DNA of 64,000 nt from an uncultured delta proteobacterium (lineage in GTDB: Bacteria > Myxococcota_A > Polyangia > Polyangiales > Houyiibacteriaceae), in the NCBI GenBank assembly GCA_963699755.1, contig CAVOVB010000006.1, forward strand, positions 1 to 64,000, given 5' to 3'. Positions within the stretch are counted from its first letter, which is position 1. Every line of letters begins with the position of its first letter. The notes beneath the pieces were generated by a model. The model saw only the letters and a program-made list of their open reading frames with translations. It had not been told where the DNA came from and did no database searches. The position numbers were made by a program, and so were the translations under genes. Shown one piece after another: positions 1 to 18,168 of this stretch.

Positions 1-70
1 GCGTGGCGAGCCGCGACCAGAGACGGGCGGCACGATGTGCGACGTGGGAGCTTTTGAGGTGCAGCCGTAA
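1..70 (+). CDS. 3' end of a gene entering the window; tail resembles a choice-of-anchor Q domain C-terminus
   Basis: Frame 2 reads RGEPRPETGGTMCDVGAFEVQP* (TAA 68-70), matching the (DQ)RG..RP....CD(I/V)GAFE end motif. Confidence 0.7.
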   Translation, partial: RGEPRPETGGTMCDVGAFEVQP

Positions 71-85
71 ACCCAGGAGGTTGTC

Positions 86-919
86 ATGAGGTACTTATTC
101 GGAATTGTGTGCGTCTGCGCGCTGGGCATGCTGCCGCTGGTTGGGTGCAGTGATAACAACGGTGGCGGCGGTAGCGGTGGCTCGGCTGGAACGGGGGGCG
201 CTGGTGCGACTGGTGGCACAGCATCTACCGTGCGGGTTTCCTTCATTGGTGACTCGATTACCGAGCAGGTGGGCACGCCAGAGAATCCGGTCAACTACCC
301 GGAACACTTGGTGTCGCTGCTGGGCGACGACTTCGAGTTGGCGAACTTCGGCGTCGGCGGCGCGACGATGCTTCGAACCAGCACTATTGCGGTGTGGGAC
401 CTTCCTGAGTTTGAAGAAGCCAAAGGCTTCGAGCCTCACGTGGTTACGGTCATGCTTGGCACGAACGACACCAAACCTCAGCACTGGGACGCTGCCGCTT
501 TTGAGTCGGACTACAGCGACATGATCGAAGAGCTGCAGTCGCTCCCTTCGAAGCCGACCGTCCTGCTCTTACTTCCCGTGCCGGTATTTGGAGCAAACGA
601 GTGGGCGATCCGAGGCGACGTTCTTCGTGACGAGGTGATTCCGATCATCGAGCAGCTCGGAGGGGAGTACGTGCTCGACGTCGTCGATCTCTACACTCCT
701 TTTCTCAACCAAGGTGAGCTTTTCCCCGACAACCTTCATCCAACTGCTGAAGGTGGCTTGCTCATCGCGCAGCAGCTCGTCGCTCCGCTCGAAGCGGCTG
801 CGAGAGCTCGCGGGTTCCAGTTGGCGGACGAGGAGCAACTCGGCGCGACCCTTCCCCAAGGAGCGAATCACGAAGTGGGGCCGCTCTGCGACGTGGGTGC
901 GTTTGAGGTGCAGCCGTAG
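86..919 (+). CDS. SGNH/GDSL hydrolase lipoprotein
   Basis: GGAGG RBS; lipobox LVGC; Gly-rich linker; FIGDSIT (block I), GVGG (II), LGTND (III), DNLHP (V). Confidence 0.88.
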   Translation: MRYLFGIVCVCALGMLPLVGCSDNNGGGGSGGSAGTGGAGATGGTASTVRVSFIGDSITEQVGTPENPVNYPEHLVSLLGDDFELANFGVGGATMLRTSTIAVWDLPEFEEAKGFEPHVVTVMLGTNDTKPQHWDAAAFESDYSDMIEELQSLPSKPTVLLLLPVPVFGANEWAIRGDVLRDEVIPIIEQLGGEYVLDVVDLYTPFLNQGELFPDNLHPTAEGGLLIAQQLVAPLEAAARARGFQLADEEQLGATLPQGANHEVGPLCDVGAFEVQP

Positions 920-940
920 AGGTGACCAACGAGGTGGGTC

Positions 941-2602
941 ATGCGTTACGTATTCGGATTTCTAGGCGTCTCTGCGCTGAGCCTGATGTCGTCACTCGGA
1001 TGCGGCGATGAAGCGGGCACCAAAGCGGGCCACTTGGTCGCTCCGGCGGTCGAGGGCGTTGCGTACGAAACCGACACGCACCAGGGGTTGACCGATCCCG
1101 AGGGAGGATTCCGTTACGAGCCAGGCGAGACTGTTCGGTTCATGGTCGGCAAGACCCTGCTCGGCGAGGTGCCCGCGCGACGCGAAGTCACGCCCTTCGA
1201 CCTCACGGGCGCACCGATTGTCACGGGCACGCTCCGACTCTGCGAGGCGCTTGGAACCGGCCATCTCGGGCTCCTTCCAAGACACCCGTGCGCGAAGAAC
1301 TTCTATGTCCCGCCAGCTAGGAGCAGCGCGGCGTTCAGTGCGCTGGTCAACCTGGTCGTGCTTCTGCAAAGCCTGGACCAGGACGCCAATCCCGACAACG
1401 GAATCCGGATCACCTCGGAGGTGCGGGGGCTGATGACCCACGCGGCGATCGATCTCACCCAGCCCTGGACATACTTCGCCGAAGACTTCCAGTTTCGTCG
1501 TGTGCTCGGGGAAGCGCATCAGCGGGGGCTGTTCAGCCGAGTGCACGGTGCCACCAACCCGGCGCCGGCGCTTCAGCGCCTGTACGAAGAGCTCGACATC
1601 AATCCTGGAATCCACGGGGTCGTCGTTGCGCTGACGGACTACAACTTCATCTACGAACAGCCCGACCTAATCGAGCGCTTCGCGTATGACGCAGCGGGCA
1701 ACTGGACCCGCAGAGAAGAGGACCGAAACGAAGATGGGGTCGTGGATTGGTACCAAACCTGGGAGTACGATTCCGACGGCAACCAAACGCGCTGGAATCT
1801 CTACGAGAAACCCGGCTCCATCTGGGTATACGACGAGTTGGGATACCTCGTTGAGAAACACTCGGCAGAGTATGCGTTTACGTATGAGCGCGACCCATAC
1901 GGTAGCGTGACCCGGGAGATCAGCGAGGACCTGGCCGCCCAACGTACCACCACGCAGAACTGGACCTACGACGAGGCGGGGCGGTCACTAGGGAGCGTGA
2001 GCGACGTCAACGGTGTTTTCGAACGGCGGACTGTCTACCACTACGACGAAGACGGCAATCTCACGCTACACGAAAGCGACTACGATGACGACGGCATCGC
2101 TGACGCCGTTTGGATATACGAATACAACTCTCAAGGATTGCGGACGCGAACCGAACGGGACTACGATGCGGATGGCGTGCTCGATTACATCGTGATCTCA
2201 GAATACGACACTAGCGGGAACACCACGCGTACCGACTTAGACGAGGACGGCAATGGCGAGCCGGAGAGCATTGAGACCTTCGAGTACGACAACGCAGGGA
2301 ACCTGACCCGCTCTACGTGGACGGTCGACCTCGATGGGGATGATGTCCTCGAAACCTATACGCTCGAGTACCGGCCCGACGGGAGGCCTGGAATCGACGG
2401 GATTGAGTACGATGCAGACGGCGACCCACTCCGTGTCTGGGACGGGACACTCACTTGGCTCTGGACTTACGATGCCGATGGCAATCCAACCCGCGAAGAA
2501 GCGGTGACCACCAACGGGCACACGGAATGGGTCACGACCTTCGAGTACGAGCCGACCGGGTTTGCGTATGTAGTCGGGCTCTGGCCGCCCCCCCAATTTT
2601 AG
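941..2602 (+). CDS. Lipoprotein with YD/RHS-like and DxDxDG repeats
   Basis: Signal MRYVFGFLGVSALSLMSSLGC; repeated YDxxGNxT units interleaved with DxDxDG motifs; no RHS core DPxG or toxin tip seen. Confidence 0.8.
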   Translation: MRYVFGFLGVSALSLMSSLGCGDEAGTKAGHLVAPAVEGVAYETDTHQGLTDPEGGFRYEPGETVRFMVGKTLLGEVPARREVTPFDLTGAPIVTGTLRLCEALGTGHLGLLPRHPCAKNFYVPPARSSAAFSALVNLVVLLQSLDQDANPDNGIRITSEVRGLMTHAAIDLTQPWTYFAEDFQFRRVLGEAHQRGLFSRVHGATNPAPALQRLYEELDINPGIHGVVVALTDYNFIYEQPDLIERFAYDAAGNWTRREEDRNEDGVVDWYQTWEYDSDGNQTRWNLYEKPGSIWVYDELGYLVEKHSAEYAFTYERDPYGSVTREISEDLAAQRTTTQNWTYDEAGRSLGSVSDVNGVFERRTVYHYDEDGNLTLHESDYDDDGIADAVWIYEYNSQGLRTRTERDYDADGVLDYIVISEYDTSGNTTRTDLDEDGNGEPESIETFEYDNAGNLTRSTWTVDLDGDDVLETYTLEYRPDGRPGIDGIEYDADGDPLRVWDGTLTWLWTYDADGNPTREEAVTTNGHTEWVTTFEYEPTGFAYVVGLWPPPQF

Positions 2603-3070
2603 CACTGCTGCGTACGAGAACATTCTGGAGTTACGGTGGCGCATTTGCGACGGCGTTGATAACACTCAAAAACCGTTGAACGGGCGGCGCGCAAGCGCGA
2701 CAGGATTCGCCGCGATTTGCCTCCAACCTCGCTCGGTGAGCCTGATGCCGGGCGGTCCTGAGGCGATCGTGGACTCGATCGGCTTGATCGAAGTAGACCA
2801 CCCTCGGACGTTCGCGTGATAGCTAACGGGCGATTGTGGAACGCGGAATGCGGACGTGATGAAAAAACCGGGGGTTGCCCGTCTGGCAGACAATCTCTCG
2901 GATCCGATGGTTGTAGCGACGACGGCTTCGCAGGGGCTGCGACATGGCTCAGGGTCTGGCACACCGACCGGTCTGAGCGAGCTCGAGTTCCGGAGCAGGA
3001 GAGGGCGGTTTCACCCGGAGTGTCGCAGTTGCGAACAGGGGTGTTGTGAATGTCTGGGGACGTAGCAGTG
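2603..3070. mobile_element. Putative MITE or internally deleted IS remnant bounded by imperfect inverted ends
   Basis: 2603-2651 and the reverse complement of 3022-3070 align ungapped (29/49) in three blocks: CACTGCTRCGT, ACATTC, CGCAnnTGCGAC; no convincing transposase inside. Confidence 0.45.
3015..3068. repeat. 54-bp direct repeat, copy 1 (copy 2 at 4263-4316)
   Basis: 51/54 identical by manual alignment; internal dyad TCGCA-GT-TGCGA; upstream GGCGGTTTCACC also shared. Confidence 0.9.
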
Positions 3071-3092
3071 TCGAGTGCGATCGCGTCGCTCA

Positions 3093-3848
3093 TTAAGGCG
3101 GTGGCAGACAAAACGGCGCTTCGTCGCCCTCCTGCTGGCATATGTAGTCAGGGGTCAAGGTGCTGCAGTCGAGCATGTTCACCCAGTCGAACACCGGATC
3201 GCTTCCGCTGCCCATGTTCTGGCACTCCTGAATCCAGACCACGTCTTCGGGGTTGCATCGCTGCTCGAGCTCGTTCTGCGCCGAGCAGGTAGGGCCTTCG
3301 ACACAAGTCGGAACGAAGGTGCCAAGCTCGCACACCCGGTCCGGCGGGCAGACCTCTGTGACGACCCAATCGCCCTCGTCGTCGCAGGTTTCGATCGCTT
3401 CACCCTCCGCGGCACATCGACTCTCACCCACCGCGCAAGAGGCGCCGACGCAGGAGGCGGCATCGTCTCGGACCACGCATACACGCGCGTCGCCGCAGAC
3501 TTCATCCGGCTCCCAATTGCCGTACTCGTCGCAGAGGGTGACCCGTCCGTAGTCGGTCGTGCACCGTGTTTGTCCCTCTTCGCACGGCCGACCCACGCAG
3601 ATCGGTTCGCCGTCGACGTGGCTGCAAACCATCCCGAAGTCGTCGCACGCCGATTCGACCTGCCACTCCAAAGTGTCGACGCAAACCAGAACGTTCAACG
3701 ACTCGGAGGTGTCTCGATCCAAGTCGCAATCCTTGTCGCCGATCGAGTCGCACGTATCGCCCGCCTCAGGGGGATATACAGGGTCGCACGTGCATCCGGT
3801 CCACAGGAGCACCATGGCAGCACCCATCAGTGCGAGAAGCGGTTGCAT
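3093..3848 (-). CDS. Cysteine-rich repeat lipoprotein
   Basis: GGAGGT RBS before ATG 3848; MQPLLALMGAAMVLLWTGC lipobox; repeated C-x-x-G-x-x-R-C...C-D-x-x-G-x-W...C modules. The ORF-track extension to 4436 is not supported. Confidence 0.78.
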   Translation of the reverse strand: MQPLLALMGAAMVLLWTGCTCDPVYPPEAGDTCDSIGDKDCDLDRDTSESLNVLVCVDTLEWQVESACDDFGMVCSHVDGEPICVGRPCEEGQTRCTTDYGRVTLCDEYGNWEPDEVCGDARVCVVRDDAASCVGASCAVGESRCAAEGEAIETCDDEGDWVVTEVCPPDRVCELGTFVPTCVEGPTCSAQNELEQRCNPEDVVWIQECQNMGSGSDPVFDWVNMLDCSTLTPDYICQQEGDEAPFCLPPP

Positions 3849-3984
3849 CTCAATACCTCCCATCGGCGAAACGCTAGGGTCGACGGCACCGAACTTCCAG
3901 GCACATGCATCGACGGGCCCGTGCGGGGAGCCTTTGTACTGACCATGCCGTGACATTCGGCACATGGCGGGCGTAGAATGCGCC

Positions 3985-4259
3985 ATGCCCAAGCTGACGC
4001 CCCGTGAGACCGATTTCATCGACGTCGCCCCGATCCAGCTCGCTACCGTGGCGACCGTCGCAGCCACACCGGACGAGGTGTGGGCGGTCATCGCCGACAA
4101 CGAGCGATGGCCCGAACGGTTCAAGGCGGCCAAAGCCTGCCGCACGACCTCCGACGTCGCAGGGGGGTCGGATCGACGCGATGGATTCACGTGGACTTGT
4201 TCAAGGTCACCGAGCGTTTCATCGCCTGGGATCCGCCGAGAAGGCGGTTTCACCTTTAG
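3985..4259 (+). pseudogene. Frameshifted, truncated SRPBCC (polyketide cyclase-like) protein
   Basis: MPKLTP...ATPDEVWAVIADNERWPERF then, after a frame change in the G-run near 4162-4167, GSTRWIHVDLFKVTERFIAWDPP; ends at repeat copy 2. Confidence 0.7.
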
Positions 4260-4262
4260 TTT

Positions 4263-4316
4263 CCGGGGTGTCGCAGTTGCGAACAGGGGTGTTGCGAATG
4301 TCTGTGGACGTAGCAG
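4263..4316. repeat. 54-bp direct repeat, copy 2
   Basis: Near-identical to 3015-3068. Confidence 0.9.
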
Positions 4317-4442
4317 CGGAAGGCACGCAAGCGCGTCCGCACCGAAGGTGGCCTCAGCAAGAAGAAGGTCAACATCGACGCCTGCCTCAGGACGAACGCG
4401 AACGAAGCGATTCGGTACTTGCAGAGCCTCTGACAAGCCTCC

Positions 4443-7160
4443 CTAGGGGCTGGGGTTTGGACACTGGTCGTTGTAGGTGCACATACCGCCGCCGCAGTTG
4501 ACCTGCACGACGTTGTACTCGTTGTTGGAGAAGCCCTCACAGTCAGCCGTGACGGATACCGACCCACATTGGCCTTCGCCGGTGTAGTACACGACGCCTT
4601 CGAGCCACCCGGACACGTTGGTGTCACTGACCGTGGCGCTCACGGTTGCGGGTGTTTCGTAGCAAGACTGCAGCATGATGCCGGTAGCGAGTTGCTCACG
4701 ATTCGGATGTGCGAGCGTCGAATCGTAGATGCTGAGCGAGGTCGAGCCGCCATTCCATGGACCCCAAATGATGCCGAAATCCGTATTCGAGCCGGCTTCG
4801 ACCGTGACATCGCACAAAGTGACGTGCTGTGCGTCGAGGCAGTCGATGATGGGCTCCGCCTCTCCGCCCTCGATGGTGAGGTTCTTGATCGTGGCGCTAC
4901 CGTAGGTCTTCAGACCGATGCCACCGTATGGATCACCGGTCATGACGATCGTGGTTTGACCGCTGCCTGCGCCGACGAGCGTCATGTCTCTCACGAGGAG
5001 GTTCGCTCCGAACGGCCCGAACTCGGGAGTTGGCCACTGCATCAGCGGTGGAGAGTAGGTCCCGGCCGCGAGCTTGATGACGGAGCCTGGGGACATCGTC
5101 TGCAAGGCATCTTGGAGCTCGCCTTCGGTCGAGACTTCGATGTCGGGTTGTGGTTGCCCGCCGCACGGGTCCTCGATCCACACCTCGAGCTTGCTCAGCT
5201 TGCTCGGGGTACCCGGTGGGTAGTTCCACTGCGGGTCGACGACAAAGATGTACGCGAGCTCGTCCGGGGTCAGCTTCGCCATCAAGTCGCCGGTGCTGCC
5301 GGAAATGTTGCGAACCGTATCCGAGGCCTGCACGTCGTAGTTTTCTGTGTCGACGACGATCAGCATGGCGTCGTAGCCCTGGAACGGCGCGAGGAAGCGC
5401 ACGTTGAGCGTGCCGGAGAGATCGAGACTCTCTACCTGAATCACGTCTGCGGTGCCGTGTGGAGCGAGAGTGAAGCCGACCTCGACTGCGTCGTCCTCCG
5501 AGGCGCCAGCGAGCTGGGAGATGATCGTGCCGTTCTTGTAGATGATGGCCTTCGGTTCTCCGAGCTCGTCGGAGCCCTTGGACCAGAGCTCATCGTCCCG
5601 GGTTTCCGAGATGTCGAAGTCCTTTAGGTAGCGGGCTCGGTAGGTGAAATCGAGGAAGTCGACGTCAGACCAGAGCTTCTTGAACGAGAGGAGGTGGTCG
5701 ACGAGGGCGACGTTCTCCACTGGATTACGGGCGCCGGGCAGCGTGCTGTGCGTGTTGGCGTAGTGGTCCTCCAGCATGCGCTTGATGATCCCGGTGTTGA
5801 AAGTCTCGGCGTACTTCCAGAAGGCGACGTTGTGGTAGGCGTACCGCGACACCGTATTCGTGACTGCCTTCAGGATCGGAATGTCGAATCGACTCCACGG
5901 CGTTGCGTGGTACAGACCGCGGATCTGGTCGTAGACTTCGTCCATGGCCCAGGTCGCCGTTCCCTCGGCGAACCAGCCGTCCAACTCGTGGTAGCTCCAG
6001 GAGGACAGGCGGTTTGTGTAGTGGTTCTGAATCAGGTGGAAGAACTCGTGCGCCACGACCTTCTTCACGTGGTCTTCGGAAGTCAACGTGTGACTGAGGT
6101 GAATCGTATGCCGGTCGAAGAACGGGACGTACGCGTCCCATTTCTTCGGCAGCGGCCCGACATAGACGACGATGGCGCCGTCCGGGCCTCGGTATCCGCG
6201 ACTATCCATTAGGTGCGCGCGCGAGTCAGCCAGCCCTTGGACGATGGCGTTCTTGAAGTTGGTGATCGTGATGCGCGTCGGATTGCGTTTGAAGGTGATG
6301 ATGGGGGCTGGCGTTGCCGCCTTCGGCGCTGCCGCCGCGACGAGGGGAACCACCTCCGCGTCCAACGGCTCGCTCAACTGAACGAGCTGAAAGCGTTTGC
6401 GGTCGTAGATTTCGCCATGCGCCGTACCATCCTCGTCGACTCTCGTGACCGGAACCAGCACGTAGTCGGCGAGTGGCGCTTGGCTTCCTTCGAAGTCACT
6501 GCCGTCGGCGGGCGGCACTGGATGGGCAATCATGCGGACCAGCCACGCGAGCTCGCTCGGGTCGACCCCCTGAGCGCCGGGGTCTTGCACCGAAATGGCC
6601 ACGGCTTCGCTCGGCTTGAGCGGCATGTCGACGTCGTAGGCGCTGCCCAATGCCGTGAGCTCGCCAACGCCGATGGCCCGTGCGGCTGGGGGCACCATTG
6701 AGGGCAACTGGGTGAGCTGGAGCTCGATAGCCTCGGGAGCGACGTTCAGTGGGATGGTCACGCTGCACGCACCCTGGGAGACCGACCCACCAGCCTCGTC
6801 GATCTCGGTGCGCGCCTTTGGTTGCTCTTCGACGAGCACAGTCGTCGTGTCGTCGGTGGTCGATTGACCGTCGGACACCGTCACCGTGACTTCGTATGTT
6901 CCCGCGCTTTCAAACCGGTGAAGCAAGCGCGCGCCTCCCGAGACGGGGCCTTCACCCAAGTCCCAGGTGTACGTTAGCTCCTGCTCGGCCGCGGGCTCGA
7001 CTCCGGAGTCGAGGACCACCTCGCACGGAACGTCGCAGACCTCGGGGTCGGCGAAGAGCTCCGCCTCGGGTGGGGGCGCCGCACCGTCACTGCTGCAAGC
7101 AGTCCACCCGAGTACGGCGACCGCCAACATCATCCAGAGCACCAGAAGCGAACGCATCAT
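4443..7160 (-). CDS. Large lipoprotein: PKD domain, HEXXH zinc-metallopeptidase-like domain and C-terminal pectin-lyase-like beta-helix
   Basis: Start MMRSLLVLW...WTAC; PKD motif YTWDLGEG...H.FESAGTYEVTVTV; AHEFFHLIQ...WFAEGTATW; LQDAL...PGSVIKLAAGTY...LVGAG beta-helix cap. Confidence 0.8.
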   Translation of the reverse strand: MMRSLLVLWMMLAVAVLGWTACSSDGAAPPPEAELFADPEVCDVPCEVVLDSGVEPAAEQELTYTWDLGEGPVSGGARLLHRFESAGTYEVTVTVSDGQSTTDDTTTVLVEEQPKARTEIDEAGGSVSQGACSVTIPLNVAPEAIELQLTQLPSMVPPAARAIGVGELTALGSAYDVDMPLKPSEAVAISVQDPGAQGVDPSELAWLVRMIAHPVPPADGSDFEGSQAPLADYVLVPVTRVDEDGTAHGEIYDRKRFQLVQLSEPLDAEVVPLVAAAAPKAATPAPIITFKRNPTRITITNFKNAIVQGLADSRAHLMDSRGYRGPDGAIVVYVGPLPKKWDAYVPFFDRHTIHLSHTLTSEDHVKKVVAHEFFHLIQNHYTNRLSSWSYHELDGWFAEGTATWAMDEVYDQIRGLYHATPWSRFDIPILKAVTNTVSRYAYHNVAFWKYAETFNTGIIKRMLEDHYANTHSTLPGARNPVENVALVDHLLSFKKLWSDVDFLDFTYRARYLKDFDISETRDDELWSKGSDELGEPKAIIYKNGTIISQLAGASEDDAVEVGFTLAPHGTADVIQVESLDLSGTLNVRFLAPFQGYDAMLIVVDTENYDVQASDTVRNISGSTGDLMAKLTPDELAYIFVVDPQWNYPPGTPSKLSKLEVWIEDPCGGQPQPDIEVSTEGELQDALQTMSPGSVIKLAAGTYSPPLMQWPTPEFGPFGANLLVRDMTLVGAGSGQTTIVMTGDPYGGIGLKTYGSATIKNLTIEGGEAEPIIDCLDAQHVTLCDVTVEAGSNTDFGIIWGPWNGGSTSLSIYDSTLAHPNREQLATGIMLQSCYETPATVSATVSDTNVSGWLEGVVYYTGEGQCGSVSVTADCEGFSNNEYNVVQVNCGGGMCTYNDQCPNPSP

Positions 7161-7201
7161 GACCTCTCTTGCGACCTCGAGCCCGCCCCCTTCAGTTGGT
7201 A

Positions 7202-7217
7202 AGCAAGCGGCGTGCCA
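7202..7217 (-). promoter_or_regulatory. Sigma-54 -24/-12 promoter for the PKD metallopeptidase gene
   Basis: Minus strand TGGCACG-CCGC-TTGCT, a full match to TGGCACG-N4-TTGCW, about 40 bp upstream of the start. Confidence 0.75.
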
Positions 7218-7643
7218 CGGGAATTCACTGAAGATTCGTGGTCTTTTCGTTGACCCGTTCGCGCAGGGTTTGCGTTGCGGGGAACCGGGCGCGAATCCTG
7301 CGCCCGCACGCTTGAATCGCGGATTCACCTCTGCGTACTGTCGTTCCTGAGAACTTCATCCGCGCCAAGATCATAGCCGGTAGTGTGACGAAGGCGGAGC
7401 ATAGTCGACATAAACGCCCATTCCGGTTCGGGTCCTTGGCGACATAACGAGCTAGTACCGCGAAATTCGGTTGTCGTTCCTCACAAGGTCATCCATCTCG
7501 AGATGATAGCCCCCAATGTCCGCGGAGGCGATCAAGCGGACGGGGTGCGAGCCCTCACGTGCGTTGGTGACGTGACCTGCCCCCGGAATTTCGGACCACT
7601 AAAAACGTGACAGACTGCCTCTTCGGGACCGTCCGGAGAGCGC

Positions 7644-7901
7644 ATGAGGAAGAGTCGATTCAGGGAAGAGCAGAAGGTGAAGATGGTGCGGGAGACCGAG
7701 CAGAGCTCGATCGCGGAAGTCGCCAAGAAACACGGGGTGAGCGTCGAGACGCTGTACCGGTGGCGCCGGGCGTACGGCGGCATGGAGCTCCCCGAGGTCA
7801 AGCGTTTGAAGCAGCTTGAGCAGGAAAACACCCGGCTCAAGAAGCTGCTCGCCGAGCGCGACCTCGAGGTCGAGGCGATGAAGGAGATCGCCGCGAAATA
7901 A
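7644..7901 (+). CDS. IS3 transposase OrfA (HTH plus leucine zipper)
   Basis: MRKSRF.EEQ...KHGVS..TLYRWRR.YGGM...RLKQLEQEN.RLKKL. Confidence 0.9.
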   Translation: MRKSRFREEQKVKMVRETEQSSIAEVAKKHGVSVETLYRWRRAYGGMELPEVKRLKQLEQENTRLKKLLAERDLEVEAMKEIAAK

Positions 7902-8761
7902 TGGTGAGTGTGTCGACACGCCGCCAGCAGGTGGCGTACGCCCGAGCGCGGGGCGTTTCATGTCGGCGTGCATGCGTGCTTCTGAGCGTGGCTCGCTCGT
8001 CGTTGCACTACGAGTCGAAGATGGCGGTCAAAGACGCGCCCGTGGTCGCACGGATGCACGTGCACTCGGCGCGCTATCCGCGCTGGGGCTACCGGCGTGT
8101 CCGCATCCTGCTCGGTCGGGACGGCATCCGGATGAGCCCGGGACGAGCGCATCGACTGTGGAAGAAGGCGGGGCTTCAAGTCCCGAAGAAACGGCGCCGA
8201 CGGCGCCTTGCAGCGAGTCGCCCGCGACCTCATCCGCCGACCGGCCCCAATCAGGTCTGGGCCTACGACTTCGTCTTCGATGCGTGTGCCAAAGGACAAA
8301 AGCTCAAGTGCCTGACCGTGGTCGACGAGTGGACCCACGAAGCGCTCGCCATCGATGTCGGCGGGAGCATTCGCTCGAGCCGCGTCATCGAAGTACTCGA
8401 CCGGCTCGTCGTCGAGCGCGGAGCACCTGAGACCTTGCGTTCGGACAACGGGCCGGAGTTCGTGTCGCTGGCCGTGCTCGGTTGGCTCAGTCGCTCCGGC
8501 GTCAAGAGCGCCTTCATTGCTCCAGGCAAGCCCTGGCAGAACGCCACCAACGAGAGCTTCAACGGGAAGTTCCGCGACGAGTGCCTCAACATGCACTGGT
8601 TTTCGAGCCGTGCTGAAGCCCGCGTGTGCATCGAGCAACAGCGACGCGAATACAACGAGGTCCGCCCTCATTCGTCCATCGCCTGCTTGACCCCGGCGGC
8701 CTTTGTTCGCCAGAACCGTTCAACCCCTAACCTTGGTCGAGGAGAGGCAGCCCTGTCCTAA
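7901..8761 (+). CDS. IS3 transposase OrfB (rve DDE integrase core)
   Basis: WAYDF, VVDEWT, RSDNGPEF, PGKPWQN..NESFNGKFRDECLN, YNEVRPHSS. Confidence 0.92.
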   Translation: MVSVSTRRQQVAYARARGVSCRRACVLLSVARSSLHYESKMAVKDAPVVARMHVHSARYPRWGYRRVRILLGRDGIRMSPGRAHRLWKKAGLQVPKKRRRRRLAASRPRPHPPTGPNQVWAYDFVFDACAKGQKLKCLTVVDEWTHEALAIDVGGSIRSSRVIEVLDRLVVERGAPETLRSDNGPEFVSLAVLGWLSRSGVKSAFIAPGKPWQNATNESFNGKFRDECLNMHWFSSRAEARVCIEQQRREYNEVRPHSSIACLTPAAFVRQNRSTPNLGRGEAALS

Positions 8762-8823
8762 CTCGTGGTCCGAGGAAACAGGGCAGGTCACCCTGCCCAA
8801 CTGCGTGAGCATCGGTGTAAGAA

Positions 8824-8921
8824 GCGCAACCGTGCGCAACGGAGCGCAACAATCGGATCGATCATGCAATCGGCCGCGTGTGCCACGCCAATTCGCGCAA
8901 GAACGTGCAACACCACGCAAC
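8824..8921. repeat. Helically phased (G/A)(C/T)GCAA repeats, two triplets with 10-bp period
   Basis: GCGCAAC at 8824, 8834, 8844; GCGCAAG, GTGCAAC, ACGCAAC at 8895, 8905, 8915. Confidence 0.6.
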
Positions 8922-9513
8922 GCACAGCTCGATTTGTCTCGCCGAGGGCGAGAAACCAAAGTTCCTGCGACCTAGCTTACCGAACCCAGAGCAACTTCTT
9001 CGGGGGCAAGACCAAGCCCGCGCGAGCCAAGGATCGCCTCATTCGGTGATGCCGGCAGATCGCGCTCGAGTCCCACGCCCTTACGCCGCGATTAGCGCCT
9101 CCATCGGCACCCCGAGATCCACCGGACAACGCTGTGCGTATCGGGCCACCGCAACTAGTAGCGGTGGCCGCTCTTTGGGAGCATCCGGATTCACCTGAGA
9201 TTTTATCGTTCCAATGATCAACAGTGGCGCAGACCAGGTCGAGTATCGGGGTAGGCGAGCGCGACGCCAAACGTCGAAACGAAACGATCGTGCGGTCGAC
9301 GAGGTTCTGAGGAGGCACAGGGCTCAACGCCGGCCCCCGATTGCGTTCGGGACGTGGGCGAACCCGGGGGACGTCAGGGGGACGTGGCGACCTGCAATGG
9401 AGTGAGAACATGTGACGAAGAGTGGACGTGGCCATGCGCGAAGCCCCTGGATATTGCTCGTAAACGACGAGAGTGGTTAGGGTTCTGCGCGACCGAAGGA
9501 ATGGGCCTCGACA

Positions 9514-9537
9514 GGTTCGAATCCCGCCCCCGGCACC
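9514..9537 (+). mobile_element. tRNA 3'-end fragment (probably tRNA-Leu), putative att site of an integrated island
   Basis: GGTTCGAATCCCGCCCCCGGCACC = T-loop TTCGAAT, T-stem 3' arm, acceptor 3' arm CCCCGGC, discriminator A and CC; no matching 5' half upstream. Confidence 0.75.
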
Positions 9538-9790
9538 TAGGCGTTCGCGTGGGGGCGGCGGGGTGGGGATGAAGGGTCCCGACGCCGCCTTAGCGTCGCC
9601 GTCGCTCCCCGCGCCCCATGCCGACCGTGCCAGTGCCAGTTCCAGCGTCCGCGGCGGTGCCAGTCTCGGCTACCGTGAACCATTCGGCTTCGCTGTGGCA
9701 TTAAGGTCACAGCCCCGCACAAGGGCTCACCTGATTCTACTCAATTCCAGTCGTCGTGCGCTTGGTGCAGTTCTTGCGATTCATCCCGGC

Positions 9791-10531
9791 ATGCGTTCAA
9801 TCTCTCTTGGCATCTTGGTCTTGTTCTTTGGCTGCTCCCCCTACGTGCACTCGCCCGCGGGCCGTACCTTCCCCCTGGAGGCTGCCAAGGCGCTCGACCC
9901 TCGCGAAACTGGCATTCAAGTGGAAGGCGGTGGCGGCTTCGGAGATGAGGTGGATCTCGGTGGGCTTACCGCACGGGTTCGGCATGGGCTCGTGAAGGGG
10001 CTCGATGGGAACTTCGAGACCGGGTTTCAGCGCTTCCGAATCAGCGGAAGCGACTACCAGATTTCGAATCGGAACATCTTCACCGCGCGCGTCGGCATGA
10101 AGTACGCGCCCATCGATCACGTCGCGCTGGTTGCGGGGCTTGCCGGTGGTGGCTGGACTGGTGGGGGGTTCATCAGCCCCGATGTGTCCCTCATCCTCGG
10201 TTACGAGAATCCGTATTGCGTGCCGTTCATCAGCGTTGGCGGATACTGGAGCATTCCCGTGCGCGAAAACATCGTCACCCTCGTGAACACGGGAGTTTCA
10301 GGTGATGATGACTACTTCGCGGCCCCAACCAACACCGTCGGTTGGACCGTAGGCACAGGGGTTCGCGTCCCCATCTCGCACGATAAAGATGGGAGCACCA
10401 AGAGCGCGTTCCTGGCCGGCATTCGCTTTCGTGGCGCGGCCTTCGACAACAGGCCACTCGGGAACCGGGACCACCGGACTTACTTCTACGGGTCGGGGGC
10501 GTTTGAGTACGTGTTCGGCCGCAGCCCGTAG
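9791..10531 (+). CDS. Lipoprotein with probable outer-membrane beta-barrel character
   Basis: MRSISLGILVLFFGC lipobox; alternating amphipathic strands; ends ...AFEYVFGRSP. Confidence 0.62.
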   Translation: MRSISLGILVLFFGCSPYVHSPAGRTFPLEAAKALDPRETGIQVEGGGGFGDEVDLGGLTARVRHGLVKGLDGNFETGFQRFRISGSDYQISNRNIFTARVGMKYAPIDHVALVAGLAGGGWTGGGFISPDVSLILGYENPYCVPFISVGGYWSIPVRENIVTLVNTGVSGDDDYFAAPTNTVGWTVGTGVRVPISHDKDGSTKSAFLAGIRFRGAAFDNRPLGNRDHRTYFYGSGAFEYVFGRSP

Positions 10532-10587
10532 CGCGATTCTGCCGAACCAGCGGGTCGCGTTTAAGATCCTAATATCCGATCTATGAT

Positions 10588-10639
10588 CGGAAGATCCCGG
10601 AAGATCCCGGAAGATCCGACCCACGGAAGATCCGACCCA
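10588..10639. repeat. Left REP-like array: CGGAAGATCC x4, two extended to AGATCCGACCCA
   Basis: Copies at 10588, 10598, 10608 and 10624. Confidence 0.8.
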
Positions 10640-10795
10640 GATTGGCGCAAACGTGGCGCGCCTGAGAGGATTGCTTCGTAGTTTCGTAGCGAGACGGCCA
10701 CCGTCGGCCATCCCGAAACCGACACCTCAGCGCCGCCAAGGCTCTGAAATCACGCGACCGCAAGTCGGCACGGCATTCGCTTGCATCGACGAGGT

Positions 10796-11713
10796 ATGAC
10801 GCGACCTCGCATCGTGGATTCGGGCGCCGTCCTGGCGCTCTCCCGACGGACGACGCGCCGTCACTTCCTCCTTCATCCGGACGAAGGGCGGCAGATGGAG
10901 CAAGTGTACTGGTATTGCCTGGCTTATGCAGCGAAGCTTCATGGCGTAGTGGTGCACGCCGCCTGCCTCATGTCGACCCACAGCCACGAGGTGATCACCG
11001 ATGTACGGGGCGAGTATCCCAAGTTTCTGCACACCTTGCACCGCCTCATCGCCTTGTGCACCAAAGCCTACCGCGGCTGGCCCGCTGAGGTCTTCGACAA
11101 GGAGAGCACCAGTGTGCACACGTTGCTGACGCCCGAAGCAATAATTGAGTCCATCGCCTACCTCATCGTGAATCCGGTTGAAGCAGGGGCCGTGCGTTAC
11201 GCTAGAGATTGGCCCGGGGCGCACACGCTTTCTAGTCATGTGGGAACACGCGTGATTCGGGTGAAGCGGCCCAAGCACTACTTCGACCCCGACAACGGGC
11301 AGTGGCCCGAGGAGCTCGAGCTTCGCATGGAGATGCCTGTGGTGCTCGAGCTGGGCTATGGACCGGAGCTTGCCCGTGAGCGCATCGCTGCGCGGGTGCG
11401 CGAAAAGCAACACCGGGCTTGGAACAATGCCAGGCGTAGCGGCGTTTCGTTCATCGGGCCGAGGCGTGTCCTGAAACTCCCGCACACTAAGCGCGCGAAG
11501 AGCTACGAAGTGTTTGCGAGTCTCAATCCGCAATTTGCCGCGGCGGGGAATCGAGCGGCGGCAACAGAAGCGGTAAAGCGGATTCGCGCATTTAATGCGC
11601 AGTATGCCAGAGCGCTGGCGGCTTGGACGGCCGGAGACCGAAGCGCGTGCTTCCCGCAGGGCACGTGGTGGATGCGGGTATGTCACGGAGCGCGCTGCGG
11701 ACCCGGGCCGTAG
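10796..11713 (+). mobile_element. RAYT-like (IS200/Y1 HUH) tyrosine transposase
   Basis: SRRTTRR.F; HUH motif LMSTHSH; catalytic Tyr motif AYLIVNPVEAG; DWPG. Confidence 0.85.
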
Positions 11714-11922
11714 AGGCTAGCTACAGCTTGAATGGATTTCGCGGCTGCTTGAGGAGGGCGGTGGTGGTCGATTGCGTGCGCCCGAGGCGATCCGCCGAAC
11801 GACAGAGGACATCGAGGAGCTTCTAGCCTCGAACTGTGGGGAATCAGGCTCCTCTTCCGATTTCAGCGCACACATCACCGTCTGCTTCGGCCTCACCGGG
11901 GGCCTGCCGCAGTCCCTTGCTA

Positions 11923-12022
11923 GCACCAACCACGGTCGGATCTGGGCCTGGATCTGGGCCTGGCTAGCACCAACCACGGTCGGATCTGGGCCTGGCACCA
12001 ACCACGGTCGGATCTGGGCCTG
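11923..12022. repeat. Right REP-like array: three exact 28-bp copies of GCACCAACCACGGTCGGATCTGGGCCTG
   Basis: Copies at 11923, 11967 and 11995, plus a partial copy at 11951; core GGTCGGATCT is the reverse complement of the left core AGATCCGACC. Confidence 0.88.
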
Positions 12023-12027
12023 CCGAC

Positions 12028-12270
12028 TTAGGCGGCGCGGGTGGCGTCGCCGATTTTGCCGGCTTCCTCGACGAAGAGGCGGCGTTCGGCGTTGACGAGC
12101 TCGAGCAGCTCCTTTTGATCGATCAGGCCGGCGTCGAGTAGGGCGCGCATGTAGCCGTCGGCGTAGCCTCGAGCTTGGGCGAGGGTCGCGTAGTTCGCCC
12201 CGCTGAAGCGGGTTTCGATCGTCTTTCGCACCAGGCCACGCAGGGTCCCCTTGAGCTCATCTAGATTCAT
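12028..12270 (-). CDS. Small hypothetical protein
   Basis: AGGAAGGA RBS; 80 aa helical protein with GYADGYMRALLDAG; last gene of a minus-strand run. Confidence 0.72.
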   Translation of the reverse strand: MNLDELKGTLRGLVRKTIETRFSGANYATLAQARGYADGYMRALLDAGLIDQKELLELVNAERRLFVEEAGKIGDATRAA

Positions 12271-12332
12271 AGCCGTTCCTTCCTAAAGCCGGAGTGTCGA
12301 TTTCGGGCGGCTAGGGTCAAGAAAACGACTGG

Positions 12333-13226
12333 CTAGAAGCAGGTTAGCTCTCGGAAGTCGTGGATTCGCTTCTCGAGGTGCTCGCGGCTCAGGTCCTGCA
12401 GCGCTCCGGTGCCAACATCTTGCACGCAGAAGGATGCTGTCGCGGAGCCGCAGATCACGGCCTGGCGAAGGTCGGTGTGACCGTTCTCCGCGAGGTATCC
12501 GAGGAAGCCGCCAGCGAACGAGTCGCCCGCGCCCGTGGGATCGGCGACCGCTTTGAGCGGGTAGGCCGGAGCACAGAAGATGTCTTCTTCGAGGAAGAGA
12601 AGCGCACCGTATTCGCCTCGCTTCACGATGACTGTTTCAGGACCAAAGGTACGCAAGGCCTCCGCGACAGCCAGAGGGTGGTGAAAGCCCGTGAGCTGTC
12701 GCGCCTCTTCCTCGTTGATCACGAGGATGTCGACACGCTTGAGGACCTCCTTGAGCGGATCGAGCGCAGTGTCGATCCAGAGGTTCATCGTGTCGGCGAT
12801 GACGAGCTTGGGATCGTCGATCTGGTCGAGGACGTGCAACTGCAGCTCCGGTGCGATGTTGCCGAGCATCACGAATTCCGAATCTCGGAACGACACCGGA
12901 ATCTTCGGGTTGAAATCCGCGAAGACGTTCAGATCCGTTCTGATCGTTTCACGCGACGTGAGGTCGTCGGTGTAGCGGCCTTCCCAATGGAACGTTTCCC
13001 CGTTCGCCACTTCTAGGCCGGTGGTGTCGATACCGTGGCCGCGGAGCATGTCGACCGCTTCTCGCGGGAAGTCCTTGCCGACGACACCGACCAGTCGGAC
13101 CGGCGCGAGCTGGCATGCGGCGAGAGAGGCGTAGGTCGCCGACCCTCCGATGACCCGATCATGCGACCCCAGATGATTGTGGATGGTGTCAAAAGCGACG
13201 GAACCGACGACGAGAAGCGAGGACAT
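12333..13226 (-). CDS. PfkB-family carbohydrate/nucleoside kinase
   Basis: VVGSVAFD, GGSATY, NEEEA, DPTGAGDSFAGG signature. Confidence 0.92.
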   Translation of the reverse strand: MSSLLVVGSVAFDTIHNHLGSHDRVIGGSATYASLAACQLAPVRLVGVVGKDFPREAVDMLRGHGIDTTGLEVANGETFHWEGRYTDDLTSRETIRTDLNVFADFNPKIPVSFRDSEFVMLGNIAPELQLHVLDQIDDPKLVIADTMNLWIDTALDPLKEVLKRVDILVINEEEARQLTGFHHPLAVAEALRTFGPETVIVKRGEYGALLFLEEDIFCAPAYPLKAVADPTGAGDSFAGGFLGYLAENGHTDLRQAVICGSATASFCVQDVGTGALQDLSREHLEKRIHDFRELTCF

Positions 13227-16131: not shown

Positions 16132-18168
16132 GTGTTTGGGGGAACACAAGGTAGGTGGGGTTTGCCCGTCGGGTACGCGTGGGCGGCTGCGCTCGTTTTG
16201 GGGCTGTCCGCCCTGTCGAACGTCTCCGTGGCCCAAGTCGCGACCCTCAGCGATGGTGGCATGGACCTGCACCTCTTTCGTCCTGCCGTCGACTCGCGAG
16301 GGTACTTCAGCGTCAACGGTACCGAGGTCATGCCCCACAAGGATTTCAGCTTCGGGCTGGTCCTCGATGCGGGCTTCGGGATCCTTCGATACAACGGCTT
16401 CGTCAATGACCCTGACGGCGCAGCCGACACCGCCGGGCGTCAGAGCCGAATCGCAAAGCAGGCGTTCACCGGGACGTTCATGTTCAACATCGGTCTGGTT
16501 GATCGACTGGTCCTCGGCATCCAGCTTCCGATCACGTTCTTTCGGGGGGACGCGGTGCAGACGCCGCCGCTCGGGGGAGCCTGCACGCTTGGTGCGGGTT
16601 GTCTCTACAACAACCAGGCGGGCGGGCTGCGGTCACAAGGGGTCGGCGACCTCACGCTCCTGGTCAAAGCGCGTCTGCTGAACCTCGGCGAGTACCCAGC
16701 CGGCATCGCCGTGACTTTGCGCGCGGGATTCCCGACGGCCAAGACGACGCAGTTCGCCGGGGAGCCGGGCTATTCTCTTTGGCCCACGGCCGTGTTCGAG
16801 TTTCAGCCGATCGAAAAGATCCGGCTCGCATTCGAAGGCGGGTATCGCTGGATTTCGGGGCAGGGCGCCACCTTCATTTGGGACGGGCGTTCGGACCCTG
16901 CCGGGCTTGGCATCCCCACGGCCAACGCAGTGGATCCGGTCGACCAGGGTACGGGTCGTCAGTTCACCTATGACGACCTCATTACATTCGGGTTCGGCTC
17001 TGCCTTCCGCATCGCAAGCTCACTCGATTTCATCGTGGAGTTCTACGGCAGCCAAATCGCGCGTGAGATCGGGACCAAAGGCACCCTTTCGATGGAGGTT
17101 CTCGGCGGGTTCAAGTACTTCGTGACCAACAAAAGCTTCCTGTTCGTCGCGGCCGGTGCGGGGATTCCCAAGACCGGCTTTGAAGCGGCTGATGTTCGCG
17201 CAACGCTCGGAATCGTCTACGAACCAGCCGTCGGGGACCGCGACAAAGACGGGATCGCCGATGACGACGATGGCTGTCCGGACGAGGCGGAAGACAAGGA
17301 TGGCTTCGAAGACCGTGACGGCTGTCCGGATCTAGACAACGACGGCGACGGAATCCTCGATGTGGATGACGCATGCCCCTTGGTCAAAGAGGACTACGAC
17401 GGCGACCGCGACGAGGATGGCTGCCCGGAGGGCAGGGAGGGGGATCGCGACGGGGACGGGATTCCCGATACGGTCGACGACTGTCCGGACGAGCCGGAGG
17501 ACTACGACGGCTTCCAGGACGAGGATGGCTGCCCGGACCTCGACAATGACGGCGATGGTATTCCGGACGAGAAGGATCTCTGTCCGAACGATCCGGAAGA
17601 CTACGACGGCTTCCAAGACGAGGATGGCTGCCCCGACCTCGACAACGACAGCGATCGGATTCTGGATGTCGATGACGCCTGTCCCAATGATCCGGAAACC
17701 TACAACGGCCACGAAGACGAGGACGGCTGCCCAGACAAGGGCCTGGTGATCCTAGAAGATACGCAGATCACGATTCTCGAGAAGGTCTACTTCGAGACGG
17801 ATAGCGCGATCATCAAGCCGCGCAGCTTCCCGCTGCTCGATGCGGTCGCCGCGACGCTGAATGCCAGCCCGCAGATCACGCTGGTAGAGATTCAGGGCCA
17901 TGCGGACGAAAGAGGCAGCGACGACTACAACATCAAGCTCACGCGGGCTCGGGCCGCCTCGGTCATGAACGCCTTGATCGAGCGTGGGGTACTCAAGCAG
18001 CGGCTGAGGTCCGGCGGGTACGGCGAGCGATGCCCGGTCGACCCCAAGCACAACGCGACGGCCTGGGAGAGAAACCGCCGCGTCGAGTTCAAGATCATCG
18101 AAACCGACGCCGGTCCCACGGGAGTTGAGGTAACATGCCCGCGGGGCCGTTCGCTGGTGCCGAGGTGA
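16132..18168 (+). CDS. OmpA-family protein with N-terminal beta-barrel and thrombospondin type 3 repeats (TraB-like architecture)
   Basis: Signal peptide; barrel-like N-domain; repeated DxDGDGIxDxxDxCPxxPEDxDGFxDxDGCP; OmpA motifs YFETDS, IQGHAD, RARAASV, NRRVEF. Confidence 0.9.
   Translation: MFGGTQGRWGLPVGYAWAAALVLGLSALSNVSVAQVATLSDGGMDLHLFRPAVDSRGYFSVNGTEVMPHKDFSFGLVLDAGFGILRYNGFVNDPDGAADTAGRQSRIAKQAFTGTFMFNIGLVDRLVLGIQLPITFFRGDAVQTPPLGGACTLGAGCLYNNQAGGLRSQGVGDLTLLVKARLLNLGEYPAGIAVTLRAGFPTAKTTQFAGEPGYSLWPTAVFEFQPIEKIRLAFEGGYRWISGQGATFIWDGRSDPAGLGIPTANAVDPVDQGTGRQFTYDDLITFGFGSAFRIASSLDFIVEFYGSQIAREIGTKGTLSMEVLGGFKYFVTNKSFLFVAAGAGIPKTGFEAADVRATLGIVYEPAVGDRDKDGIADDDDGCPDEAEDKDGFEDRDGCPDLDNDGDGILDVDDACPLVKEDYDGDRDEDGCPEGREGDRDGDGIPDTVDDCPDEPEDYDGFQDEDGCPDLDNDGDGIPDEKDLCPNDPEDYDGFQDEDGCPDLDNDSDRILDVDDACPNDPETYNGHEDEDGCPDKGLVILEDTQITILEKVYFETDSAIIKPRSFPLLDAVAATLNASPQITLVEIQGHADERGSDDYNIKLTRARAASVMNALIERGVLKQRLRSGGYGERCPVDPKHNATAWERNRRVEFKIIETDAGPTGVEVTCPRGRSLVPR

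Follow-up and report, generated by a model that had tools for sequence, protein, structure and literature searches.

Putative homology arms from the two ends of a lipoprotein gene flank unrelated cargo genes in a genus of uncultured deltaproteobacteria

We studied the ends that are shared by unrelated lipoprotein genes in an uncultured delta proteobacterium (family Houyiibacteriaceae), starting from positions 1 to 64,000 of contig CAVOVB010000006.1 (assembly GCA_963699755.1). We refer to this 64,000-nt stretch as the window. The upstream end is a ribosome-binding site (RBS) and a lipoprotein signal peptide, which we call the leader, and the downstream end is a 33-nt sequence that we call the tail. 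As judged by alignment, the tail is the last 33 nt of this genus's choice-of-anchor Q (CoA-Q) genes. The ends are shared and the middles are unrelated, most tails are non-coding, and the tracts transferred between species run from the RBS/leader into a relic of the CoA-Q gene. We consider it somewhat probable that the tail and the RBS/leader of a CoA-Q chassis act as homology arms of 30–70 nt, through which a single cargo gene would be exchanged by double crossover without a dedicated integrase. An initial annotation of the window had suggested either that the junction of tail, spacer, and leader is a homology arm for exchanging cargo or that the tail is a C-terminal sorting signal. The first idea holds in modified form and the second fails: the tail is an element of the DNA rather than a signal in the peptide.

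Two shared ends around unrelated genes

The window opens at the start of contig C6 of the source genome (G000; 5.35 Mb in 11 contigs). Each unit consists of an RBS and signal peptide, an unrelated cargo, and a CoA-Q gene's final ~30 nt, and the window shows two such units. Their features are as follows.

1..37, + strand: 3' coding end or relic of a CoA-Q gene, RGEPRPETGGTM, truncated by the contig start; all 37 available nt can be aligned with CoA-Q ends, at ~90%
38..70, + strand: tail copy 1, the final 33 nt of a CoA-Q gene; putative 3' homology arm of the preceding unit
75..148, + strand: RBS AGGAGG (75–80) and lipoprotein signal peptide (86–148, lipobox LVGC); putative 5' homology arm
149..225, + strand: glycine-rich linker, end approximate; the zone where homology among unrelated cargos usually fades (median +73 nt after the ATG)
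242..754, + strand: cargo 1, core of a GDSL/SGNH hydrolase (GDS at 55, GTND at 125, DNLH at 215), within the open reading frame (ORF) at 86–919
836..883, + strand: decayed older in-frame CoA-Q relic (QLGATLPQGANHEVGP), from comparison of GDSL homologues
887..919, + strand: tail copy 2, in frame here by chance of the junction; putative 3' homology arm, with a sharp right edge at 919
931..1003, + strand: RBS GAGGTG (931–936) and second signal peptide (941–1003)
941..2602, + strand: cargo 2, an RHS/YD-repeat lipoprotein of 553 aa with no tail behind it
2600..3070, no strand given: internally deleted remnant of an insertion sequence (IS), DDE/rve-type by inspection, directly behind cargo 2 and outside the cassette system

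Just 37 CoA-Q-like nt lie upstream of tail copy 1, since the contig begins there. As the initial annotation described, the two tails agree at 30 of 33 nt and both encode CDVGAFEVQP and a stop; the differences (tail positions 12, 15, and 33) all fall on third codon positions. An RBS and a leader do follow soon behind each tail (ATGs at 86 and 941), and the two cargos are indeed unrelated (a GDSL/SGNH hydrolase, PF13472, E = 9e-26, and an RHS/YD-repeat protein). The two leaders had been called near-identical, but they are only similar, with 10 of 21 aa and 44 of 63 nt in common. The assignment of the tail to the end of the choice-of-anchor Q domain is borne out by full-length genes of the genus, which carry this peptide and match NF041518 (three of them score 57–71 bits); the GDSL protein of the window, unlike these, has no NF041518 match and carries relics alone. 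Its QLGATLPQG was taken for a decayed form of the sequence that precedes the tail, and QLGATLPQG..EVGP does belong to an older in-frame CoA-Q relic (the homologues P0001 and P0003 end in QLGVTFLQGA..VGPFELQ), but DNA homology to present CoA-Q ends reaches only 3 nt to the left of 887.

A profile of the leader identified 138 distinct genes (124 with a lipobox-like motif and 72 with a glycine-rich linker). Setting aside 7 incomplete genes, 6 whose flank is cut, and 20 CoA-Q genes left 105 that could be scored. A tail lies within 600 nt for 55 of these 105, versus 7 of 5,866 other long frames: it is behind the stop codon in 50 (37 of them at -6 to 100 nt) and in frame in 5. We grouped 130 leader proteins into 46 clusters, 26 of which have a tail-bearing member (the largest cluster chains CoA-Q proteins and cysteine-rich proteins via shared pieces). 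Among 67 leader proteins, the Pfam matches include penicillin amidase, GH16, FG-GAP, TPR, BNR, DUF3089, the serine hydrolase family PF00144, secretory lipase, PD40, laminin G, GDSL, Dictyostelium repeats, and beta-helix; many have no match.

At the 5' side, 126 of 130 leader genes share DNA that spans the start codon with a gene from another cluster (median extent -87 to +73 nt, 78% identity). Two types of promoter-like module recur upstream of the 138 leader genes: an AATTACGTAT type in 49 and, in 21, a type that we take to be sigma-54-like from its consensus. In one locus (L112:4590–4730), for example, two ACGCA-N5-TGCG palindromes lie ~22 nt apart before the sigma-54-like site and may be an enhancer for the whole gene set. 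The direct junction seen in the window, with a tail 21 nt or less upstream of a leader gene, is a minority form (12 of 138 genes). The units are single genes in same-strand arrays with the site behind the stop codon; 51 of 54 neighboring tail pairs are on the same strand.

The tail and leader are largely a property of this genus, which appears to be SG8-38 of GTDB. The CoA-Q domain is present in 50 of 55 genus genomes. A degenerate 30-nt tail pattern was found in 40 of 88 genomes of the family, that is, in the source genome, in 39 of 54 other genomes of the genus, and in 0 of 33 from other genera. (The source genome has 14 matches to it and none to a reversed control pattern, so chance does not account for them.) A DNA pattern for the RBS and leader was found in 34 of 54 genus genomes and in 2 of 33 outside it. 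Scanning all GTDB species genomes by exact match, we found 48 loci, of which 43 are titled Deltaproteobacteria, Myxococcales, Polyangiales, Polyangiaceae, or Sandaracinaceae; the others are from uncultured bacteria (2), Coxiellaceae (2), and Gemmatimonadota (1). The Gemmatimonadota locus (L058:3000–4103) is a complete leader-CoA-Q-tail gene in a chromosome, next to an ORF that by eye resembles a terminase small subunit; it is possibly a cross-phylum transfer or an assembly chimera. The two Coxiellaceae contigs with a tail (L041 and L076) are possibly misbinned.

We compared 136 distinct tail copies, from the source genome and loci L002–L108 (the tail matrix was built from 13 seeds, one of them shifted by one base). 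CoA-Q proteins terminate in 28 of these copies, and 7 copies are read in frame within other long frames; the remaining 101 lie outside any frame of at least 120 codons. Non-coding tails follow the stop codons of unrelated genes in all three frames (11, 12, and 15 cases; for 9 of the 103 rows in the table of tails versus upstream ORFs, most of them at the edge of a locus, no long ORF ends upstream). In 46 non-coding copies, the ratio of non-synonymous to synonymous changes is 0.67 without two inherited wobble sites and 0.21 with them, versus ~0.15 in CoA-Q genes. The mostly non-coding tails, the mixed frames, and this ratio together remove the basis for a sorting peptide. That CDVGAFEVQP was selected as a C-terminal sorting or anchoring peptide on unrelated proteins is highly improbable: it is in frame on the window's GDSL protein, on its paralog, and on P0002 and P0004, but in just 5 of 105 non-CoA-Q leader genes (5 of the 55 with a tail), and we found no purifying selection on the tail peptide beyond the CoA-Q family. 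Among GDSL homologues, the tail is altered (RDVG.., RDAG..) or lacking, and P0005–P0007 and P0010 do not have it. Furthermore, a lipobox is already present at the N terminus of 124 of 138 leader proteins, and the decapeptide has no membrane helix. The silent differences between the window's two tails had been read as a sign of selection on the protein, but tail positions 12 and 33 are free to vary whether a copy is coding or not, so the differences are uninformative about the GDSL peptide. We also rejected the idea that non-coding tails are small ORFs (MCDVGAFEVQP), as an ATG precedes just 38 of 101 of them.

Transfers between species and the shape of the relics

The two best swaps involve single-gene cassettes that are nearly identical in different species. 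A 228-aa cassette in G000 (contig C2) and G005 (contig C3) is 99.1% identical, versus 79% for 3.7 kb of core genes; its mismatches fall within the tail and the opening codons of the leader, and the promoters and neighbors differ. G020 and G102 share a 159-aa cassette whose 99.2% identity begins at the RBS and ends 14 nt beyond the stop codon; tail and promoter type differ between the two genomes (core DNA, measured for each against G000, is 82% identical). Both cassettes lie inside contigs of 415–903 kb. In runs X3 and X4, the 228-aa cassette of G000 is covered from RBS to tail and most of its upstream neighbors are uncovered.

The ends of near-identical blocks concentrate at both arms. Of 172 such ends, 16 fall in tail zones (1.6% of bases) and 41 in promoter/leader zones (4.1%), which is about six-fold enrichment for each. 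Among 17 near-identical cargo pairs (3 of which were dropped because a flank was cut), both flanks are unrelated in 8 of 14, one flank is in 2, and neither is in 4. One island that is common to four or five genomes has the same cassette families in changed order. For G020 and G102, the left flank is shared and the first cargo is different; we found no case of alternative cargo in which both gene flanks were conserved. Cargo swapping as the initial annotation imagined it is supported and goes beyond what was imagined: it is seen across the genus, with at least 26 cargo clusters carrying a tail and with single-gene transfers between species that are bounded by leader and tail. The arms flank each cargo, the leader in front and the tail behind. 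Alongside these single-gene cases, a large serine recombinase with two cassettes, including the GDSL paralog, is 98.9% identical between G000 and G102 (L113:1–4794 and L091:7166–11981; core 82%), which points to recent transfer of the whole element.

The relics of the CoA-Q gene have one sharp edge and one ragged edge. At the right, the consensus falls after position 33–35, at the stop codon, and contigs from three independent metagenomes run off at position 919 of the window (8, 5, and 9 contigs). The left edge ranges from -8 to +245 nt relative to the start of the tail, yet it is concentrated: 51 of 108 copies end within -8 to +5, 80 within +20, and 9 beyond +60. Within 300 nt of the stop codon of 105 genes, the relic is 25–33 nt long in 43 and 10–24 nt long in 1, and nothing rises above background in 61. 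This retained length agrees with the 23–27 bp minimum (minimal efficient processing segment, MEPS) given for recombination by E. coli RecBC (PMC6819513).

The GDSL family shows relics of several grades. P0006, P0007, and P0010 have no tail, P0008 and P0009 are fusions of leader, GDSL domain, and CoA-Q body, and P0001 and P0003 end in the old relic. In the GDSL gene of the window and in its paralog, a fresh tail was added on top of the old relic. At another locus (L062), a GDSL gene is cut internally at the tail's last 15 nt. By their structure, the P0008/P0009 fusions and the cut gene appear to be intermediates.

A proposed mechanism and its alternatives

Under the reading that we favor, a new cargo would enter a leader-CoA-Q gene with the leader as anchor and with an illegitimate join near the 3' end (one-sided illegitimate recombination). 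Alternatively, the cargo would enter in frame behind the leader and the beta-helix body would be deleted later. Either way, the relic left behind would be ragged on its left side and sharply bounded on its right. With an arm on each side, the cargo could then recombine into any other slot, where it would obtain the resident promoter and export route. Relics of ~25 nt or more would persist, as we propose, because only those still recombine. Donor DNA might be delivered by integrative elements, satellites, and perhaps transformation, and RecA or an annealing protein would be candidate enzymes. Homology-facilitated illegitimate recombination combines an anchor with an illegitimate join of 3–12 nt (PMC6819513), and the same two-step model was proposed for Vibrio type VI secretion system (T6SS) arrays (PMC5361080).

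Several observations weigh against exchange through the two arms. Half of the scorable leader genes (50 of 105) have no tail within 600 nt, and some of these tail-less genes changed context too. The arms are ~78% alike between unrelated cargos and the tails ~83%, which is low for RecA over 30–70 nt. In a control on larger loci, both flanks are unrelated for 8 of 14 leader pairs and 14 of 31 other pairs; the comparison supports exchange (10 of 17 versus 2 of 15, p = 0.012) only after a post hoc re-sorting, which removed 13 pairs of a repeated 420-nt module and moved 3 missed leader genes, and the pairs are non-independent. The enrichments are upper bounds, as the loci were picked by leader or tail and some overlap, and related genomes are non-independent. 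All of the genomes are metagenome-assembled genomes (MAGs), and contamination of G000 is 9%. Synonymous conservation of the coding tail is within the range of other CoA-Q codons, and its bias toward TTT may reflect common descent; we had considered this bias (TTT in 20 of 21, versus 0.21 in genome usage) as proof of selection on DNA but dropped it, as other CoA-Q codons are equally uniform. Finally, recombination was never observed directly, and exchange is read from sequence.

It is unlikely that the tail is an attC-like target of a site-specific recombinase or nuclease acting in trans, with the units as integron-like cassettes. Its ~30-bp length, its sharp right edge, and the strand bias of neighboring tails would fit such a site, as would the stop codons that abut the tail (distance -5 to 15 in 12 of 50) and the several G000 tails located within tRNA-integrated elements or next to a large serine recombinase. 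However, the left edge is ragged over -8 to +245, and the 5' ends of the tracts lie at the RBS/leader, where there is no tail. In G000, the best match to the integron integrase model (TIGR02249) has 88.7 bits versus a cut-off of 265. An attC-like motif, searched by regular expression, is present in 0 of 96 tails in strict form and 1 of 96 in relaxed form (background: 2 and 46 of 2,000), and the tail has neither dyad symmetry nor a stable fold (median DNA fold z of -0.48). Searches of G000 for tyrosine and serine recombinases, reverse transcriptases, and IntI yielded no constant partner, although enzyme families that are absent from G000 would be missed by them; when its recombinases were compared by tblastn to 88 loci from other genomes, just 14 had matches, and these are from several families. 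More broadly, a dedicated cassette system, in which a specific enzyme encoded elsewhere (a recombinase, a nuclease, or a single-strand annealing protein) recognizes the 30-bp tail and the RBS/leader, is doubtful. If it did exist, foreign genes would be captured into surface-display slots and shuffled across species, even phyla, by a counterpart of the integron made from a protein-coding gene's own ends.

Two other explanations do not involve exchange at the arms. In one, which we regard as quite unlikely, the tail is kept as a cis-regulatory element in the 3' UTR or near a promoter (for RNA stability, as an enhancer half-site, or as a Shine-Dalgarno-like GAGGTG), and the breakpoints are a by-product. 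In 17 pairs, non-coding tails are 79–94% alike next to cargo ends that are 50–76% alike (the tails were preselected at 21 of 30 or better), and in 17 of 136 copies a CCAAACGCA module that lies downstream can base-pair with the tail; but this hairpin is absent from the other 119 and has 0 of 18 compensated pairs, and the sequences downstream are diverse. We found no RNA covariation and no Rfam match (window positions 1–12,500). Regulation also leaves unexplained why 99%-identical tracts stop inside the relic. The other is that the tails are debris without function: CoA-Q genes would receive cargo insertions, the dead gene would be worn down toward its end by deletion, and the apparent swaps would be ordinary island turnover or MAG chimeras at short repeats. 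The long relics (up to 245 nt), the prevalence of CoA-Q genes, and the generally mosaic islands would fit this. Nevertheless, we consider it very unlikely, given the gap in relic lengths (43 at 25–33 nt versus 1 at 10–24 nt) and the enrichment of block ends at both arms; the best two swaps also lie inside large contigs, and their arms differ between partners, unlike a collapsed repeat.

Several mobile elements of G000 carry tails: a satellite-like, capsid-encoding element at tRNA-Ser, a prophage-like element at tRNA-Arg, and an element at tRNA-Cys. Other G000 tails lie next to a large serine recombinase or in a RadC/DUF3768 island that has no integrase within 15 kb. The tRNA-Ser element (L109:8465–18389; contig C1, 126–136 kb) has VapE, a protease-capsid fusion, and an integrase, and it carries a tail-ended cargo of 646 aa, with a homologue in the tRNA-Cys element on contig C10. 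G000 encodes ComEC and DprA. There is no annealing protein among the 11 proteins of the C1 prophage. On contig C7, two tails (positions 16985 and 40130; L116 and L117) lie 150–220 nt behind transposase frames that by eye are IS30-like, on the same strand. The sole reverse transcriptase of G000 (C1:2568–4784, - strand, a 739-codon frame) is far from any tail. Tail joints with sides of 20–42 nt, which might suggest excision circles, are explained by the repeat itself and are not evidence.

Two other sequences were considered as helpers and rejected. A module of ~420 nt with a 63-aa ORF (MSTKKHT...; L112:5700–6140, with copies in L023, L024, L030, L033, L090, L092, and L104) is repeated 3–7 times between cassettes in one type of island and has high depth in metagenomes. 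Its ORF has no Pfam match and a weak lead to DUF736; close copies are in ~10 genomes, and with this query it is missing from the tail-rich G092, G093, G010, and G011. The window also encodes a Y1 transposase that resembles REP-associated tyrosine transposases (RAYTs) (10781–11713; 14 genome matches), with inverted ends of the AGATCC../..GGATCT type and short tandem stutters. A link to RAYTs, prompted by a GTAG motif and by the procA preprint, was rejected because the RAYT flanks are unlike the tail, which has no dyad.

The RHS gene of the window has no tail within 600 nt downstream and has the IS remnant behind its stop instead. The remnant (2600–3070) begins at the RHS stop codon and may have displaced the gene's tail; fuller copies are at contig C5, positions 11–1488, and in L130 and L133. 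We had considered this repeat as a targeting element and rejected that, as it is a deleted DDE-type IS. An IS3-like element at 7644–8761 has two ORFs, the second with rve and HTH_21 domains. The gene at 9473–10531 ends (10493–10531) in GGGGCGTTTGAG...CCCGTAG, encoding GAFEYVFGRSP and a stop, which looks like a split tail but may be chance.

Comparison with known systems

The system works like minimal mobile elements (MMEs) and displacement arrays, and it does not behave like an integron, a REP/RAYT system, or a sorting signal. MMEs are swapped without an integrase, through the homology of their conserved flanks; the tract ends of our cassettes would fit such exchange. In Neisseria, unrelated alternative genes occupy equivalent slots (PMC1797815). 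The flanks of MMEs are whole conserved genes at one syntenic site, whereas the arms described here are 30–70 nt pieces of one gene's ends that recur at many slots and within mobile elements, and the one on the 5' side provides the signal peptide. The effector-immunity arrays of the Vibrio cholerae T6SS and the Rhs and maf displacement systems also have a conserved upstream anchor, a proposed homology-facilitated illegitimate capture, and 3' remnants of the displaced gene, with arrays then moved by homologous recombination (PMC5361080; PMC1797815). We likewise found a constant 5' anchor, unrelated 3' modules, and 3' remnants of a displaced gene, but here the cargos are whole unrelated enzymes or binding proteins, and a remnant of ~30 nt is preferred and is itself the second breakpoint. 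There are no toxin-immunity pairs among the Pfam matches of the 67 leader proteins, which are hydrolases, repeats, and beta-helices (immunity genes were not sought).

Integron cassettes, and the clusters of attC sites lacking integron integrases (CALINs), are recognized by the features of attC. They resemble the units described here in being single genes with a site right behind the stop codon, in same-strand arrays whose order is shuffled between genomes. Unlike them, these units have no IntI, attC motif, or hairpin; their left edge is ragged, and the leader contains a second breakpoint. In the CUP regulon of IncN plasmids, unrelated genes lie behind a repeated upstream module and are lost by recombination between repeats (PMC3490853); here, the repeat runs into the signal peptide and is accompanied by another repeat on the 3' side. 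The procA genes for prochlorosins share a conserved leader, a diverse downstream part, expansion in a single lineage, and RAYT-like transposases (bioRxiv 10.1101/2020.03.09.984088), but their cores are short peptides diversified by indels, and in our case the RAYT ends are unlike the tail and most tails are far from RAYTs. We found no description of such a cassette system in a literature search whose coverage excluded most subscription papers and bioRxiv supplements.

The novelty lies in cargos that are whole, unrelated genes between two dispersed, very short arms derived from the ends of one gene, and in recent transfer across species. To our knowledge, how new integron cassettes arise is still open. 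In this genus, the steps are visible as graded relics and as 99%-identical transfers between species, so sequence by itself is enough to map crossover positions, and a laboratory myxobacterium could serve to test the arms. If exchange does proceed through these arms, then by reusing the two ends of one lipoprotein gene as short arms of universal use, a lineage can assemble, without an integrase, a pool of single genes that are exchanged much as in an integron. Because the 5' arm would give a captured gene both a promoter slot and an export signal, the likely product would be a set of fast-changing surface enzymes and binding proteins.

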